From Chloroflexota bacterium (lineage in GTDB: Bacteria; Chloroflexota; Anaerolineae; Anaerolineales; Villigracilaceae): a DNA stretch of 64,000 nt. This document shows positions 4,654 to 31,830 of this stretch, in pieces; positions within the stretch are counted from its first letter, which is position 1; every line of letters starts with the position of its first letter. Below the pieces are notes generated by a model, which saw only the letters and a list, made by a program, of their open reading frames with translations, was not told the origin of the DNA and did not search any database. The stretch is from positions 204 through 64,203 of the forward strand of contig JAZDHO010000160.1 in the NCBI GenBank assembly GCA_043805815.1, in the 5' to 3' direction. The translations under genes were made by a program, and so were the position numbers.

Positions 4654-4858
4654 AAGGTGCTGTGGTGAGGCGCTTCAGCCAGCCTTCGCCTCTTCGCCTG
4701 TCAAGTCCCTCTAACAGACGAAAACACCGATGCTCCTTGCGCATCGGGTCGTCAGACTGCAAAGCCTCGCGGCTTTTGTCTCTGACCTGAGACCTACTGC
4801 TCGGTTTTCAATGATCTGTCAGGGGACGAGATCGGTTGAAAAGCACTGGCGAAGAGTG

Positions 4859-4886
4859 ATTATACGACTTTAGCCGGCGTTGTCAA
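4859..4886 (-). promoter_or_regulatory. rRNA operon promoter (sigma70 consensus)
   Basis: Minus strand reads TTGACA (4886-4881), 16 nt spacer, TATAAT (4864-4859). An AT-rich UP-like tract GGTGATATTTTAAGGTAAATG lies just upstream (about 4900-4920). It sits about 290 nt before the 16S 5' end. Confidence 0.7.
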
Positions 4887-4925
4887 TGCCGTGGAGGAGC
4901 ATTTACCTTAAAATATCACCCCTCC

Positions 4926-5531
4926 TTAGCTCATCTCCTGCCGACCAGAAAGCGCCCTAAGCAGAGTGTTCTGGTCCGCGTATTCCAGATCTCCTCCCAC
5001 CGGCAGGCCCCGGGCCAGCCGCGTCACCTGCACCCCGTACGGGCGCAATTGTTGCTGGAGGTAGAGGGCCGTCGCGTCGCCCTCCATGCTTGGATTGGTG
5101 GCCAGGATCACCTCCCGCACGGCGCCCCTCGCCACACGATCGACCAGCGGCTTTATGCGGATGTCGTCCGGGCCAATGCCTTCGATCGGCGAAAGCACTC
5201 CGTGGAGAACGTGAAAACGACCGGAGTACGCACCGACACGCTCCAGGGCCACGACATCCAGCGCCTCTTCCACCACACAAATCATGCTTGCGTCGCGCTT
5301 CTGATCCTCGCAGATCTCACACCGGGTCCTGCCCGCTACGGTGATGCTGAAGCACTCCTGGCACAGTGTCGTCTTGGACTTGAGTCCGCGCAGGGCCTCA
5401 GCCAGCTCCTCCGAGACCTCCTCGGGAGCCCGCAGGAAGAAGAAAGCCAGCCGCGATGCCGACTTCGGCCCAATTCCTGGGAGACGCTCCAGGGCACTAA
5501 TCAGTTTCTGGATCGGATCTGGCAACAACAC
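4926..5531 (-). CDS. recR: recombination protein RecR
   Basis: 201 aa. N-terminal helix-hairpin-helix LERLPGIGPKSASRLAFF, a Cys4 zinc finger (CQECFS...CEIC) and a Toprim region. Last gene of the classic dnaX-ybaB-recR order. Confidence 0.9.
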   Translation of the reverse strand: MLLPDPIQKLISALERLPGIGPKSASRLAFFFLRAPEEVSEELAEALRGLKSKTTLCQECFSITVAGRTRCEICEDQKRDASMICVVEEALDVVALERVGAYSGRFHVLHGVLSPIEGIGPDDIRIKPLVDRVARGAVREVILATNPSMEGDATALYLQQQLRPYGVQVTRLARGLPVGGDLEYADQNTLLRALSGRQEMS

Positions 5532-5581
5532 GATTCAAGCCTCGTCATTCGCGGCAACATCTCAGGTCCACCGCCTGCAGC

Positions 5582-5908
5582 CTAGAAGGGCAGTCCCCCG
5601 GTGAGCGGGCCAAGACGATCCGAAGCCAGCGCTCGGGACTGCTCAAGCCCGAGGTTGACGGCAGATAGCACCAGATCCTGCAGCATCTCGAGATCGGGTT
5701 CGTGCAGGAGATCCGCGGAGATCTCAACTGAGCGGCACTTCTGGTCTCCAGTCATGACTACCTTTACGGCGCCTCCGCCGGCGGTTCCCGTGACGGTCTC
5801 CTCTGCCAGCTTGGCTTGAGCCTCGGCCAGCTGCTGCTGCAGCCGCTGGATTTGTTGCATCATGCCGCCGCCCGCGCCGCCGGCGGGCCGGCTGAAGCCT
5901 TTTGCCAT
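5582..5908 (-). CDS. ybaB: YbaB/EbfC family nucleoid-associated protein
   Basis: 108 aa. MMQQIQRLQQQLAEAQAKL...VKVVMTGDQKCRSVEI pattern typical of YbaB. Located between dnaX and recR. Confidence 0.9.
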   Translation of the reverse strand: MAKGFSRPAGGAGGGMMQQIQRLQQQLAEAQAKLAEETVTGTAGGGAVKVVMTGDQKCRSVEISADLLHEPDLEMLQDLVLSAVNLGLEQSRALASDRLGPLTGGLPF

Positions 5909-5922
5909 ACCTTGTCCCTCCG

Positions 5923-7596
5923 CTACTCCTGCAGGTCGACGATCTCGCCGCCCTGATTCAACGCTGTCGCGACCATTCCGTCTTGAGGCATATTGGGCGG
6001 CACCTTGCCGCGGGCGTTAATCACGACGCATCGGAGCCGCACAGCATGACCAAGCACAGCGGCGATCGCCTTGCGGGCCGCCTCCATGTTCTCGGGCCGA
6101 TCCATGATCGCTCGGACGGCGTCTGATTGAAAGCCCAAGAACAGTTCGTCGCCCAGGACTTCCACGGGCTTGCATGAGTTCAGAAGGCCATCCACAGCCG
6201 GATGATTGCGCTTGAGTGCTCCGCGGATCTCCTTCCAGCCTCGGACAACGTCAGCCAGGTCAATTGACGGAGGTGGTTGGCCGGCAGGCACGTCTCCACT
6301 CGTGATGGAGGACGCCTCAATGTTGGGTTCCGCGTGCGGAGCCACATGATCGGCTGTTTGATGGAGCGTTGTTGGCCCACTATCGCCGGTGTTCTGGGCA
6401 GCTCCGGCGTTTCGGGGCGCCGATGGCGAGCTCCCTTTTCGCCCGGACGCCATGGATCCCGCAAGGGGCGCGCGAGCCCCACCCCCCGACGGTGCGGGGT
6501 TGGAGCGTCCCGGGTCTGCTTCCGGCTCAAATGATTCAGCCAGAGCCAGCTCCAGTGCCAGCGAGGGCTGCCAGCCACCGCGCGTGTCTGCCGCGGCAGC
6601 GTTGAACGCCTTCATCATCCTGAGCACGCGCGCGGCCAAGAATGCCGCGGCGTGCACCTTCATGGCTTCCCGTACCTCTTTCGTGGCTTCGACCCGATCC
6701 GGATTGCCCAGCTGGATCAGCATAAGGCCGCGGAGGTATTCAATGATCTGGCGCGCCAGCGTGCGCGGGTCCACTCCGGAGTCGAGGGCGACGCGCAGCC
6801 TTTCCAGGCCCACGGCGGATTGCCGGTCCCGTATCGACTCGACGATGTCCAGGACCGCCTGGCTGGTTGCAGTCCCGAGAACCGGCTGAGCCAGTTCCAG
6901 CGTGATCTCCGGGCCCGCGGATGCCAATTGATCCAACAAGGACTGCGCATCCCGGACGGATCCGGTGGCTTGGCGCGCGATCATCACCAACGCATCATCG
7001 TTTGCCTGCCAGCCTTCCGACGCGACGATGCTGCGCAGATTTGCCACGATCTCACCGACCGACACGCGCCGGAACTCGTGGCGCTGGCAGCGCGAGAGCA
7101 CCGTCGCAGGGATCTTGTGGATCTCGGTCGTGGCCAACACAAAGATGACATGCGGCGGCGGCTCCTCGAGAGTCTTGAGCAGCGCGTTGAAGGCCGGCGT
7201 GGACAGCATGTGGACTTCATCGATGATGTAGACTTTGAACCGCCCCTGCGAAGGAGAAAAACCGATCTTGTCGCGCAGCTCACGCACGTCTTCGACGCCC
7301 GTGTTCGACGCTGCATCCATTTCGATCAGATCGAGGAATCGATTTTCGTTTACTGCGCCGCAGTGGTTACACTCATTGCACGGCCGTTGGCCAGGATCCT
7401 CTGCCAGACAGTTGACGGCCTTTGCCAGGATGCGCGCAACGGTGGTCTTGCCCGTCCCGCGCGGCCCGGCGAAAAGATACGCATGACCGACACGATCCTT
7501 TCTGATCGCGTTCCTCAGGGTCTGGACCACGTGCCCCTGTCCCATAACCTGATCCCAGCCCTTGGGGCGGTATTTCCGGTAAAGTGCTTGGCTCAT
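5923..7596 (-). CDS. dnaX: DNA polymerase III subunit gamma/tau
   Basis: 557 aa. YRKYRPKGWDQVMGQ..., Walker A GPRGTGKTT, zinc module CNECNHC, DEVHML, SRCQRHEF. Confidence 0.95.
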   Translation of the reverse strand: MSQALYRKYRPKGWDQVMGQGHVVQTLRNAIRKDRVGHAYLFAGPRGTGKTTVARILAKAVNCLAEDPGQRPCNECNHCGAVNENRFLDLIEMDAASNTGVEDVRELRDKIGFSPSQGRFKVYIIDEVHMLSTPAFNALLKTLEEPPPHVIFVLATTEIHKIPATVLSRCQRHEFRRVSVGEIVANLRSIVASEGWQANDDALVMIARQATGSVRDAQSLLDQLASAGPEITLELAQPVLGTATSQAVLDIVESIRDRQSAVGLERLRVALDSGVDPRTLARQIIEYLRGLMLIQLGNPDRVEATKEVREAMKVHAAAFLAARVLRMMKAFNAAAADTRGGWQPSLALELALAESFEPEADPGRSNPAPSGGGARAPLAGSMASGRKGSSPSAPRNAGAAQNTGDSGPTTLHQTADHVAPHAEPNIEASSITSGDVPAGQPPPSIDLADVVRGWKEIRGALKRNHPAVDGLLNSCKPVEVLGDELFLGFQSDAVRAIMDRPENMEAARKAIAAVLGHAVRLRCVVINARGKVPPNMPQDGMVATALNQGGEIVDLQE

Positions 7597-28329: not shown

Positions 28330-28419
28330 GGCGAGGAGTGTATCAAGAGCGGATGAGCGAATTCTTATGTGCCTTGCCGAGGATCGCCAAGGGCACTTCA
28401 GTGGACGTACTGTAATGGG

Positions 28420-29439
28420 CTAGCCGCTTCGATGCTCGGACTGGTGCCGCCCACGCTGGACCGTGCCATCACGAACGCGTTCGAGGAGTTGGTGGACGGG
28501 CTTCAGGCTGGCAACGTCCACGGCAAGGTTCCTTGTTTTCGTCTTACTGAACTGAAAGACGCGCCGGCCCTCGGGGATGAGTCTGGCGCGCATTCGGAAC
28601 TGCTCAAGGGTGATCCATCCAAGCAGGCAGATGTCCTTCCCGTCTAGCCATGCGTCTTGCCAGTCCCCTGGGCCGATAAGGTGAGTTTCCCCGCGCGACG
28701 GCGAGTGGATGCCGATGCGGCCGTCAGGCCGCGCATGGGCATGCAAATGGGAAAGAGCATGGAAAGATGCATCCACTTCCACACGCTGGGCTGGCGGAAG
28801 CCCGACGACGAGGTCGAGCTGGGTCCCAGAGCCGTCCTGCCCGGAAAGCTCCAGCGAGACGGTGCCCGACGAATCCGATTTTAGTGCCAGCGGGCCCAGC
28901 GGCGCCCACGTCTGTGGCCGCATCCATGACGGAGGCATACCGTGGATCCAGAATGTCCTACCGCCAGGCAAGGTAGCAGTTCGCGTGCCAGCGCGACCAC
29001 CCGCAACCAGGCCGCTCACGAGGGCGAACAAGTACAAACCATCCCCCAACACTTCCTCGGCCGCATGTCGATCCGCCGGAACCAGCGCGGGCGCGCGCAG
29101 TGCCAGGCCAGGATCTGCAGCCAAGGCGTCGATCTCCAGCGGCCGTGAGATGAGGAACGACTTGAGCTCGCAACGGCGGCCGGCGAGATCAAGGTCGTAT
29201 CGATCGGGATCCGAGAACGGCACGGCAGCCTGCACCGCATACGAGATGCCTTCAGCGCTGAGGTGGCGTCGAAACGCCAGCTGCAGCGCGGTCGCCGCCA
29301 CGGCGCGCCGCACGGTGTCATACAACCCGCGCCCCGCGGGGCTGTGCAGACGCGGCAACACACGGCGGGCATAGTGGATGCCGGCCTCGGTGAGATCCGG
29401 CGTGTACGGCAGGTGGACGAAATCGCGGGCAGAGATCAT
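28420..29439 (-). CDS. orphan protein with PD-(D/E)XK-like motif (candidate endonuclease)
   Basis: 339 aa from MISARDF. Its ATG overlaps the upstream stop as ATGA (29436-29439). Motif SDPDRYDLDLAGRRCELKSF. No other family signature recognised. Confidence 0.55.
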   Translation of the reverse strand: MISARDFVHLPYTPDLTEAGIHYARRVLPRLHSPAGRGLYDTVRRAVAATALQLAFRRHLSAEGISYAVQAAVPFSDPDRYDLDLAGRRCELKSFLISRPLEIDALAADPGLALRAPALVPADRHAAEEVLGDGLYLFALVSGLVAGGRAGTRTATLPGGRTFWIHGMPPSWMRPQTWAPLGPLALKSDSSGTVSLELSGQDGSGTQLDLVVGLPPAQRVEVDASFHALSHLHAHARPDGRIGIHSPSRGETHLIGPGDWQDAWLDGKDICLLGWITLEQFRMRARLIPEGRRVFQFSKTKTRNLAVDVASLKPVHQLLERVRDGTVQRGRHQSEHRSG

Positions 29440-30032
29440 CGAGTCGAGAGCGCTGTGTGGCTGATTGCCGGAGCCAGCAGCCTCCTGCATGGCATCCCGA
29501 CGGCCAAAAACGCGGCGCTCTCCGCAATTCGAAGCACGCTCGCCCAATTGCGCCGAACGGATTTGCCTGTCAGGGCGAAGTATGCCTGCAGCAAAATCGG
29601 GGGGTAGGCCAGACGGTCGGGTCGGAATGTATCAAACAGCAGGAACTTGACATGGAATAGCGAAAACCCCGTGATGAGCGCCGCAACCCAGGCCCCGCGC
29701 GCCGAGCGCGTGTACCAGCGGGTGAACAGGAATACCGCCAGCAACTGCGCGGCCGAACCGAAATACGCCAGGGCGGCGAATCCGCCCTCGATCGGGAGCT
29801 GCAGAACAAGAGATGCCCCGCGCGCGAGCATGGGGGTCAAGTACCGGTATGCAAAGGGGCTCGCCGCGGGGCCCGCAAAGCCATGTTCGGCGATTGCGAT
29901 GTAGTAACGAAAGTCCCAGGAGAATCGCTGCATGTCGATGGAGTTCGTGAACAGATCGATGACCGTGACCAGGACCAGAGCGGCCGCGGGCGCTCCCACC
30001 AATTGACTCGCGGACTTCCTGGTGTCAGTCAC
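29436..30032 (-). CDS. polytopic membrane protein (198 aa), function unknown
   Basis: GTG start overlapping the methyltransferase stop (GTGA at 30029-30032). About 5 hydrophobic helices. SWDFRYYIAIAEHGF...PFAYRYLTP resembles the N-termini of GT-C/DUF2029-type proteins, but it is much shorter. Confidence 0.5.
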   Translation of the reverse strand: MTDTRKSASQLVGAPAAALVLVTVIDLFTNSIDMQRFSWDFRYYIAIAEHGFAGPAASPFAYRYLTPMLARGASLVLQLPIEGGFAALAYFGSAAQLLAVFLFTRWYTRSARGAWVAALITGFSLFHVKFLLFDTFRPDRLAYPPILLQAYFALTGKSVRRNWASVLRIAESAAFLAVGMPCRRLLAPAISHTALSTR

Positions 30033-30841
30033 GGGTCATTCCGGAATTGCAGACAATAGTGATGAAACGTGTTGCTCACCCAGGCTGAACCCAGCCCGAA
30101 AGGGGCGAGCCGCTGATTGTCCTGGCACCACACCCTCTCATCCTTCAATACATAGATGCGTCCCAGCTCGCGACCCAGGTCCCATGCCAGCGGATATATC
30201 CGCCCGCCCTTCTTGACGTTCTTCACTATGATCGTGAGATACGCCCTCTGATGGAGGATCGACTTGAGACCGGCGTAGATCGAGACCAGGTGCCGGAGAA
30301 AAGCTTCGTAGTCGTGTATGTTCCCCAGATCCCGCGGGTCTTCGGAATAGACGACGTCCAACTCAGGCGAGCCGCGGCGCGTCTCTTGCGTCTTGGCGCC
30401 CCTGGCGTGCAGCATGTCCCAATATGGAGGTGAGGTCAGAACATAGTGGATCTTCGGCAGCCCAAACTCGCCGATCCGGGAGGCATCGCCGCAGATCAAT
30501 TCCGATTCGACCTCCAGGACGGCGTTTCCCAGGGCAGCGCGTTCCTCGCTGACCATATTGGTCGCCACGCTTGCGTACCGGGGATTCAGCTCTATGCCGT
30601 ACGAACGCCGGCCCGCACGCAACGCCGCGATGAGAGTGGACCCTGTCCCGGCCATCGGATCCAAGACGGTGTCCCCCTTCTTTGTGAAGAATTCGATGAA
30701 CTCCTGTGCTAGCGTCTCCGGGAACTTGGCCGGATGCGTCAGCACCCCCTTCTTGCGCGGCGGGGGATTGTGCAGGAACCAGGATTTCTGGAATTTCAAC
30801 CAGGTTTTCGCGTCCAGATCGTTCAGCCGGTTATTGCGCAT
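30029..30841 (-). CDS. DNA methyltransferase, N4-cytosine/N6-adenine family (SPPY type)
   Basis: 270 aa. HPAKFP (aa 36-41), VLDPMAGTGST (59-69), YGIELNP, CGDA, VLTSPPYW (134-141), then ...AYLTIIVKN... and FHHYCLQFRN. Confidence 0.8.
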   Translation of the reverse strand: MRNNRLNDLDAKTWLKFQKSWFLHNPPPRKKGVLTHPAKFPETLAQEFIEFFTKKGDTVLDPMAGTGSTLIAALRAGRRSYGIELNPRYASVATNMVSEERAALGNAVLEVESELICGDASRIGEFGLPKIHYVLTSPPYWDMLHARGAKTQETRRGSPELDVVYSEDPRDLGNIHDYEAFLRHLVSIYAGLKSILHQRAYLTIIVKNVKKGGRIYPLAWDLGRELGRIYVLKDERVWCQDNQRLAPFGLGSAWVSNTFHHYCLQFRNDP

Positions 30842-30866
30842 TTCGAAAAAATCCAGCCGTGCCCGA

Positions 30867-31667
30867 TTAGGGAGTCTGGGTCGCGGCTGTGTCAGCGGGA
30901 ACCAGTCGATAGATCGAGAGGCCAGAGAAAGTCACCAAAGCGGGAGTATCGCCCCCCGCCTGGGCAAACACACCCAGGCCGCCTGCCTTGTAGTTGCTGT
31001 CACTGACCGTGAATTGGTAGCGATCGTTCAGGAAAAAACGGAATTCCGAACCCAACGCCCACACACCCAGCCTAACTTGCCCGGGCGCACCCACCGGGAC
31101 ATCCGACGAGGCGGTGGGCGGCTGAAGTACGCGCGGCGTGCCGAGACTGAACCGCTCGGCGGCCGCTGTGCCGTCGCAGATGACGACAAATCGATAGTAC
31201 GCAACCTCGTTGGGCGCGCGGAAAACCAGGCCGTAGGCATCCCTTTCCCTGCATAGGCTGGGGCGGGCCGTGATCTCCATATACATGTCATCGAGGATCG
31301 CGCTCCGGTGCAGACTGACGACTGGGGGTTGACCTGGCCATGCCGATACCGTCAAGCCCCTTTCGGAAACCGTCGCCGATGCCTCACCGGAAACAGCTGC
31401 GTTCCAATGGGTGGAGGACGTCATGTCGTCAGCTACCATCAGTCCCCCTATCCCGGGCCTGCGCTCCGGCGTTGGCTCCCGCGTCACCGCCGCGGCAACG
31501 GATGGCGTCTCGGTCGGCGGAAACCACAGAAAATCGGTCGGGACTGCCACCGGGGCGGTGGACGTCAGCGCGGCCGCGGACTGACTCATGCCGCCTGGGA
31601 CGGGGCTGCAGCCCGCGGTGCCCAGAATCGCCAGTGCCACTATGGAGACGAGATTTCGCCGATTCAT
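30867..31667 (-). CDS. lectin/ConA-like domain lipoprotein (paralogue of 8225-8917)
   Basis: Start at MNRRNLVSIVALAILGTAGC (lipobox). The track ORF extends to 31757. DAYGLVFRAPNEVAYYRFVVICDG...GLGVFAQ...VTFSGLSIY matches the interrupted gene's domain. Confidence 0.65.
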   Translation of the reverse strand: MNRRNLVSIVALAILGTAGCSPVPGGMSQSAAALTSTAPVAVPTDFLWFPPTETPSVAAAVTREPTPERRPGIGGLMVADDMTSSTHWNAAVSGEASATVSERGLTVSAWPGQPPVVSLHRSAILDDMYMEITARPSLCRERDAYGLVFRAPNEVAYYRFVVICDGTAAAERFSLGTPRVLQPPTASSDVPVGAPGQVRLGVWALGSEFRFFLNDRYQFTVSDSNYKAGGLGVFAQAGGDTPALVTFSGLSIYRLVPADTAATQTP

Positions 31668-31830
31668 GTAGGAAGGCCGCGGCTGCTGTAAAATAAGCGC
31701 AGCAGCGGGCCTCTGCGTGCCCTTGGCAAGCACACTGCGGTTGATTTCATCAACCATAAGATCGCCACACCACCTTTATGATCGCACATCACACAGTGCG
31801 TTTGGACATTCTAGCATAAGGGAGCAGAAG

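Follow-up and report, generated by a model that had tools for sequence, protein, structure and literature searches.

In E. coli dcm-vsr, the overlapping downstream gene encodes a nuclease of the restriction-enzyme fold with a role outside defence. Orphan methylases beside diverged restriction genes have been described as an outcome of restriction-modification decay (Seshasayee et al. 2012, PMC3424554). Here, a gene pair reminiscent of both situations was analysed in a stretch of 64,000 nucleotides (hereafter the window) of the Chloroflexota bacterium assembly GCA_043805815.1 (contig JAZDHO010000160.1, positions 204 to 64,203 of the forward strand). The pair consists of gene 1, which encodes an amino-methyltransferase with an SPPY motif, and gene 3, which encodes a protein of an unannotated family; a shorter open reading frame (ORF), gene 2, lies between them. 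The comparative data show that genes 1 and 3 form an ancient, vertically inherited pair under selection. Gene 2, as its alignment to an intact homologue shows, is the in-frame deletion remnant of an unrelated membrane-protein gene and stands outside the system. On balance, a slight preference goes to the explanation that the pair is a domesticated derivative of a restriction-modification system, accompanied by one decaying passenger gene.

As in decaying type II systems, the amino-methyltransferase gene stands directly upstream of a putative PD-(D/E)XK-like gene, on the same strand and often overlapping it; the methylase is far better conserved than its partner, and the presumed catalytic residues of the latter are eroded in many lineages. 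Unlike in such systems, the gene 3 frame is full length and under purifying selection in about 500 clusters, and the pair is vertical across an order, in housekeeping synteny. The methylase is conserved throughout a taxon, as are those of CcrM, Dam/MutH and Dcm/Vsr. Gene 3 has no sequence similarity to MutH or Vsr, its sole Vsr match being noise (E = 0.058 in 1 of 111 members); a Vsr- or MutH-like repair role was considered and set aside, as it found no sequence support. The literature on TTHA0409 and on conserved orphan methylases in Chloroflexi yielded no direct description of a pair of the methylase and gene 3. The three genes are arranged as follows.

30029..30841, minus strand: gene 1, 270-residue SPPY amino-methyltransferase, ATG start (PF01555 match)
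29436..30032, minus strand: gene 2, 198-residue ORF, GTG start, deletion remnant (BLASTP against the 408-residue ORF of locus L003)
28420..29439, minus strand: gene 3, 339-residue protein of an unannotated family, ATG at 29439 (homologues, AlphaFold2 model)

An ORF check found all three frames at the positions given by an earlier note on this DNA, chained by 4-nt stop/start overlaps that are both present in the sequence (GTGA at 30029-30032 and ATGA at 29436-29439).

Conservation and inheritance of the pair

Gene 3 has more than 357 close homologues; its family comprises 511 clusters at 50% identity, almost all of 320-335 residues, and is encoded by at least 278 species-level genomes, nearly all labelled Anaerolineales, Anaerolineae or Chloroflexota. 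The gene 1 family is very large (more than 7,400 matches, the top 120 all at least 74% identical). In a comparison of 85 loci, the methylase was found upstream on the same strand in 67 and was absent from 10, and 8 loci were too short to judge; the resulting 67 of 77 informative loci report adjacency only, not cognate activity. The neighbourhood reads HIT, LysM, epimerase, lipoprotein, methylase, the variable slot, gene 3, C39-like peptidase, metK, cbiO/Q/M and Fur. It is the same in relatives with 85%, 72% and 50% identity in gene 3, and recurs over the range of 45-85%. The pair is kept without the other syntenic markers in L025, where the two genes overlap, and in L043. It is also kept in L086, L087 and L089, in which gene 3 is 23-37% identical and has no E-x-K element (see below); the methylase is still 59-70% identical there.

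The methylase is 59-90% identical across related loci, with a ratio of nonsynonymous to synonymous substitution rates (dN/dS) of 0.11-0.14; for gene 3 the ratio is 0.18-0.28. Both values resemble those of neighbouring genes and indicate purifying selection. Overall, of the co-occurrence that the earlier note had proposed to examine in related genomes, that of methyltransferase and gene 3 holds as a conserved pair. The order of three genes is not kept, a middle gene of the 408-residue type being present in only 3 of the 85 loci. The note had also asked whether the genes sit in variable islands; the pair instead sits in core synteny with ordinary GC content, and variability is confined to the slot between the two genes.

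The lipoprotein gene upstream of the methylase (window positions 30867-31757, minus strand; 296 residues with an LGTAGC lipobox and no Pfam family) shows a synteny with the methylase as tight as that of gene 3, distant locus L086 included.

Relatives, predicted fold and signature residues

Gene 1 was proposed in the earlier note to be a homologue of N4/N6-type DNA methyltransferases, and both motifs and profiles bear this out. The match to PF01555 scored 78.5 bits (gathering cutoff 26.7; E = 9.3e-22), and among the PADLOC type II methylase models the best E was 5.5e-29 (MTase_II), with one model matched end to end; matches to NCBIfam DNA methylase models fell below the model cutoffs. The two motifs are the following.

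30638..30661, minus strand: motif I, DPMAGTGS, S-adenosylmethionine binding, residues 61-68 (kept in 112/120 homologues)
30422..30433, minus strand: motif IV, SPPY, catalytic, residues 137-140 (kept in 118/120 homologues)

The best solved relative in a PDB sequence search was TTHA0409 (PDB 2zie, E = 7.6e-24). Residues 33-102 of gene 1 align to 213-282 of the 2zie chain and residues 115-212 to 24-103, so that the motif I and SPPY regions both find their counterparts in TTHA0409 (2zie/2zif/2zig). Compared with TTHA0409 and the other beta-class PF01555 enzymes (M.PvuII, CcrM, M.MboIIA), however, the order is reversed: the beta-class arrangement is IV, target-recognition domain, X-I, whereas in gene 1 motif I precedes motif IV, and the protein of 270 residues has no evident target-recognition domain. 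With its halves matching TTHA0409 in exchanged positions, gene 1 is a circular permutant of a beta-class methylase. Circular permutation is a known type of event in the methyltransferase superfamily (PMC7544214).

SPPY is also present in distant plasmid homologues. Those from a Haloferax plasmid (44% identity, adjoining a helicase gene) and from Kozakia plasmids (38% identity) are full length and have the same permuted order, which fits a DNA-methylase origin of gene 1. Weak similarity to UPF0020 and Trm14 was seen in profile and PDB searches. Judged by homology only, the closest relatives being DNA methylases, the substrate of gene 1 would be DNA rather than RNA.

Two homologues deserve separate mention. 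In the Haloferax lucentense plasmid pSVX82-3 (L091, 117686-122701), the methylase homologue is followed on the same strand by genes for an 899-residue ATP-dependent helicase and a 462-residue hypothetical protein, with an IS630 transposase alongside; this may represent a different, mobile, defence-type context of the permuted-methylase family. In a Chloroflexota metagenome-assembled genome (MAG; L015:6681-7928), a complete intein bearing a LAGLIDADG homing endonuclease splits the methylase homologue (matches to Intein_splicing, E = 3e-12, LAGLIDADG_3 and Hint_2). The intein begins with CLPSG and ends with VVHN, followed by Cys+1, and its insertion point corresponds to about nt 30125-30130 of the window, just before CQDNQ. 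Inteins in DNA methylases are unusual; this one is consistent with a highly conserved host gene.

That gene 3 matches no known family, as the earlier note had remarked, was confirmed: profile searches with the protein singly and across 42 or 111 members gave nothing above noise in Pfam, NCBIfam, PADLOC or PHROGs, and searches of gene 3 and two family alignments against PDB sequences found no relative. The start was assigned from homologues, which favour the ATG of the 339-residue protein over the starts of 356 and 375 residues. The public MAG annotation (P0001, 356 residues) begins seventeen codons upstream of ATG 29439; the longest ORF (375 residues) begins with a TTG at 29547 and overlaps more deeply with gene 2.

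A confident AlphaFold2 model of gene 3 (mean predicted local distance difference test score, pLDDT, 83; predicted template modelling score 0.82) shows a long helix (39-62), three strands (67-71, 82-85 and 88-97), helices within 100-115 and a further strand (117-121). The order alpha-beta-beta-beta-alpha-beta is that of PD-(D/E)XK proteins. Beyond this core, the model contains a beta-rich region of about residues 160-260 and then a C-terminal segment. The top PDB matches in Foldseek were beta-sandwich or cupin proteins aligned to the inserted domain. Against BFVD, gene 3 matched phage proteins of 159-184 residues with a probability of 1.0 and target-normalised template modelling (TM) scores of 0.63-0.74, the alignments spanning about 311-334 query columns. 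Two of these targets carry the name 'Restriction endonuclease' (A0A6J5NRJ2 and A0A6J7XSJ9; 159-172 residues, TM scores 0.63-0.74, probability 1.0); unlike them, gene 3 has a large beta-rich insertion, over which the alignment extends (311-325 query columns), and the identity to them is 9-13% with E values of only 8e-4 to 4.5e-2. That short targets match over some 311-334 query columns implies that an insertion interrupts a core of nuclease type. When modelled separately, the N-terminal 152 residues reached a pLDDT of only 61, in agreement with a discontinuous core that needs the C-terminal segment. On these models, a PD-(D/E)XK core resembling that of restriction endonucleases, with a beta-rich insert, is plausible for gene 3.

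The stretch SDPDRYDLDLAGRRCELKSF in which the earlier note saw a nuclease signature was located at 29161-29210. The signature and two further positions of interest are listed below.

29161..29205, minus strand: D79-x2-D82 ... E91-x-K93 signature (the earlier D118/E127/K129 in 375-residue numbering)
29281..29283, minus strand: Q53 of the window gene 3 (Glu in 111/120 of the main clade; 81% acidic in the diverse set)
29038..29040, minus strand: G134 of the window gene 3 (Asp in 117/120 of the main clade; 91% acidic in the diverse set)

In the model, D79 and D82 stand before strand 2, and E91-x-K93 lies in strand 3. Conservation was assessed in a main clade (120 gene 3 clusters, at least 45% identity) and in a diverse set (125 representatives, median identity 32%). 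In the main clade, position 79 is acidic in 118/120, D82 is found in 113, position 91 is acidic in 119/120 and Lys occurs at 93 in 102/120. In the diverse set, only 36% have an acidic residue at position 91 and 20% a Lys at position 93; hydrophobic residues are frequent at both. The ExK element is thus lost in most diverse clusters, where the ORF length, the GGRRC anchor beside ExK and the features at E53 and D134 remain. These data show that many lineages can do without the classical catalytic residues. The PD-(D/E)XK claim of the earlier note therefore stands in part: the order of the fold, the BFVD matches and the main-clade signature support it, but ExK is not conserved family-wide.

The window copy keeps D79, D82, E91 and K93 but has neither the family-wide E53 nor D134, the two acidic positions with the strongest conservation (E53Q, D134G). 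Position 53 is Q, H or K in its sub-clade, and G134 is found in the window and its nearest relative. The loss of both residues makes restriction activity of the window gene 3 doubtful.

Loci without the methylase fall into about six lineages, and in four of these the signature residues are altered. In L034, L058 and L070, where the stretch separating the lipoprotein gene from gene 3 is cleanly deleted, gene 3 has D79N and K93Q, and L070 also has Asn at 91. Position 91 is Gly in L059; K93Q is found in L037, L039 and L035, and D82N in L055. L040/L077 and L084 keep DDDK in a different housekeeping context. Among the parsed loci with a methylase, about 90% have the canonical signature. The sisters L042 and L067 have the methylase and already carry the same substitutions, which suggests that erosion came before methylase loss. 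This sequence of events is what restriction-modification logic predicts, although the events are few and there are exceptions.

Two unusual database proteins were noted in the family. P0303 (414 residues) has the C-terminal part of the methylase fused in frame to gene 3 through a 9-codon linker without a stop, and in P0290 (736 residues) a frameshifted membrane protein of the 408-residue type is fused to gene 3. These fusions may stem from errors of assembly or gene calling, or from stop codons that were truly lost.

Origin and role of the pair

In the explanation to which we give slight preference, the pair would most likely descend from a type II restriction-modification system, since fixed in the core genome of the Anaerolineales. 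The permuted methylase, poor in a target-recognition domain, would have been kept for housekeeping DNA methylation, probably of N4-cytosine (or N6-adenine), and the fast-evolving gene 3 for a role that does not strictly need D...ExK, such as DNA binding or targeting beside the methylase. Cleavage by gene 3 might be retained only in the main clade. The gene of the 408-residue membrane protein once filled a recurrent insertion slot between the two genes and then suffered the in-frame deletion.

Several observations weigh against this explanation. No sequence profile ties gene 3 to any nuclease family, Foldseek retrieved no PDB entry for the full model at E<=0.001, and the predicted nuclease fold draws on weak BFVD matches (E = 7e-5 to 4.5e-2) together with the secondary-structure order. 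In L040, L077 and L084, gene 3 has an intact DDDK but no methylase lies within 8 kb of it, and the association of methylase loss with signature changes comes from few independent events. Some sources name homologues of gene 1 RsmD or Trm11. Finally, the methylase is in equally tight synteny with the lipoprotein gene, so that in this lineage two genes may stay next to each other without working together.

In the alternative that survives best, the two genes would be mere neighbours without a functional relation, held in place by the strong synteny of the region; the methylase might act on RNA or be purely regulatory on DNA, and gene 3 would serve another purpose. The whole block of about 10 kb, with the secreted lipoprotein and the epimerase, is equally syntenic, unrelated genes have entered between the two in at least 26 loci, gene 3 stands alone in about 10, and the UPF0020 and Trm14 similarity of the methylase could be read in the same sense. 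Against this, the two genes remain side by side, in many cases overlapping by 4 nt, in loci that have lost all other markers (L025, L043, L086), and the adjacency holds down to 23% identity in gene 3; the association between methylase loss and altered signature residues would also be unexpected for mere neighbours. We regard this alternative as unlikely.

A working type II restriction-modification system, fixed in the chromosome and with gene 2 as irrelevant debris, would account for D79, D82, E91 and K93 in the window and their conservation in the main clade, for the resemblance of the gene 3 model to phage 'Restriction endonuclease' proteins, for the tendency of methylase loss to accompany changed signature residues, and for purifying selection on both genes. 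Order-wide vertical inheritance in housekeeping synteny with a methylase of 59-90% identity is, however, atypical for restriction-modification (PMC3424554); the pair is retained where hydrophobic residues replace ExK; E53 and D134, conserved across the family, are missing from the window copy; some loci have gene 3 with its signature intact but no methylase close by; and no PADLOC restriction-enzyme model was matched. Altogether, a system that still restricts is quite unlikely. The restriction-modification logic of the earlier note is retained in part: there is a conserved pair with a plausible nuclease-like core, but the pair persists without ExK.

Within the domestication explanation, a more far-reaching and tentative proposal is that the two genes form an order-wide housekeeping module of the Anaerolineales, in which an ex-nuclease serves as the non-restriction partner of a permuted methylase devoid of a target-recognition domain; it might bind DNA or target the enzyme as a subunit, or act in methyl-directed nicking or repair. 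We consider it rather unlikely in this specific form; if true, it would constitute a lineage-specific epigenetic system with a standing comparable to CcrM or Dam/MutH. The family itself is of interest in that some 500 clusters with a restriction-enzyme-like predicted fold, for which Pfam, NCBIfam and PADLOC hold no model, are locked to a conserved permuted SPPY methylase, and this link spans a bacterial order that is abundant and for the most part uncultured. Should the pair be domesticated, the lineages offer a natural series from an intact signature through an eroded one to loss of the methylase, and would show a selfish or defence module becoming an epigenetic housekeeping one; Anaerolineales methylomes would then be predicted to contain a conserved m4C or m6A motif.

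Gene 2, the slot and the flanks

Gene 2 has no family match in Pfam, PADLOC or NCBIfam, and none at E<=1 in PADLOC (PADLOC-DB v2). Its homologues beyond its own database entry number only four, all of 116-133 residues, and two of them (P0124 and P0125) are frameshifted fragments. The origin of the gene became clear from locus L003, which at 4778-6004 has an intact membrane-protein ORF of 408 residues in the same position and with the same 4-nt overlaps. In BLASTP, residues 3-159 of gene 2 align to 2-158 of the L003 protein (75% identity) and residues 156-198 to 366-408, corresponding to the in-frame loss of about 208 internal residues with roughly five hydrophobic segments. The position of the junction is given below.

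29556..29567, minus strand: approximate deletion junction in gene 2, about 208 codons lost (L003 alignment)

The deletion left both 4-nt overlaps in place. The N-terminal part of gene 2 has a dN/dS of 0.16 relative to L003, so the deletion is recent compared with the divergence from that locus. The closest relative, L001/L002 (dS, the synonymous divergence, about 0.3), has only a frameshifted gene 2 remnant of 300 nt. Gene 2 is probably a pseudogene in the making. The earlier note had described it as a polytopic protein with about five transmembrane helices; a Kyte-Doolittle plot shows about three clear hydrophobic segments, and the product is a truncated derivative of the polytopic protein of 408 residues.

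Most loci have no gene of the 408-residue type. In the 67 loci with both genes, the gap between the methylase and gene 3 measures at most 102 nt in 33, 142-363 nt in 8 and 0.45-4.5 kb in 26. The cargo of the long gaps comprises the 408-residue protein (3 loci), a second polytopic membrane protein of about 390 residues that is GT87-like (L007, L008, L010, L011, L014, L029 and L075), and a GH15 glucoamylase, RmuC, a YhcG nuclease, an LCP protein, DUF3800 and secreted proteins on the opposite strand. The slot is an insertion hot spot. The 394-residue slot protein of L007 matched GT87 weakly (E = 0.0023, below the cutoff), and the 408-residue proteins of L003 and L032 had no Pfam match, hence no match to a GT-C family. 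The idea that a membrane protein is a recurrent component was rejected, the two families being unrelated: the hhalign probability between the 408-residue and GT87-like families is 0.1.

The earlier note had taken the three genes for a translationally coupled, membrane-tethered or membrane-effector variant of restriction-modification; this is highly improbable and largely refuted by the comparative data since, although the overlaps chain three ORFs and L003 (similarly L032 and L074) combines methylase, intact 408-residue gene and gene 3 with overlaps, the window gene 2 lacks some 208 residues and roughly five hydrophobic segments, its nearest relative has only a frameshifted remnant and most loci no such gene, the slot is filled elsewhere by a membrane protein without homology to it or by quite different genes, and neither non-methylase component has a PADLOC match. 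In the PADLOC check, only the methylase was matched, genes 2 and 3 finding no defence family at E<=1; the middle gene is a decaying passenger, and the slot cargo is unrelated across loci.

Two hairpins flank the locus.

30846..30895, minus strand: imperfect hairpin and U6 after the upstream lipoprotein gene, possible terminator (fold -17.5 kcal/mol)
28369..28396, minus strand: imperfect hairpin 3' of gene 3 (fold -17.4 kcal/mol)

Both fold as the earlier note had assumed, but their stability is no better than that of dinucleotide shuffles (z = -0.78 and -0.44, respectively); a terminator and promoter scan gave nothing beyond chance and picked neither of them. The GC content of the methylase region, from which the note had drawn a hint of foreign origin, is 0.59-0.605, within the local range of 0.57-0.66 and near the values of the neighbouring peptidase and epimerase genes. 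A foreign origin by GC was rejected, as this composition is ordinary for the neighbourhood.

Some of the deposited sequences call for caution. The typical block of lipoprotein, methylase, gene 3 and peptidase is also carried by L038 and L049, which are labelled as Syntrophothermus sp. and Bacteroidota MAGs from the same project; these are probably mis-binned contigs rather than transfers. In L005 (8760-9911), metK appears as three consecutive fragments (125, 152 and 128 residues) in a 1.49-Mb contig, and several methylase matches in long-read MAGs are also split. Such split metK and methylase calls are likely long-read indel errors and not pseudogenes.

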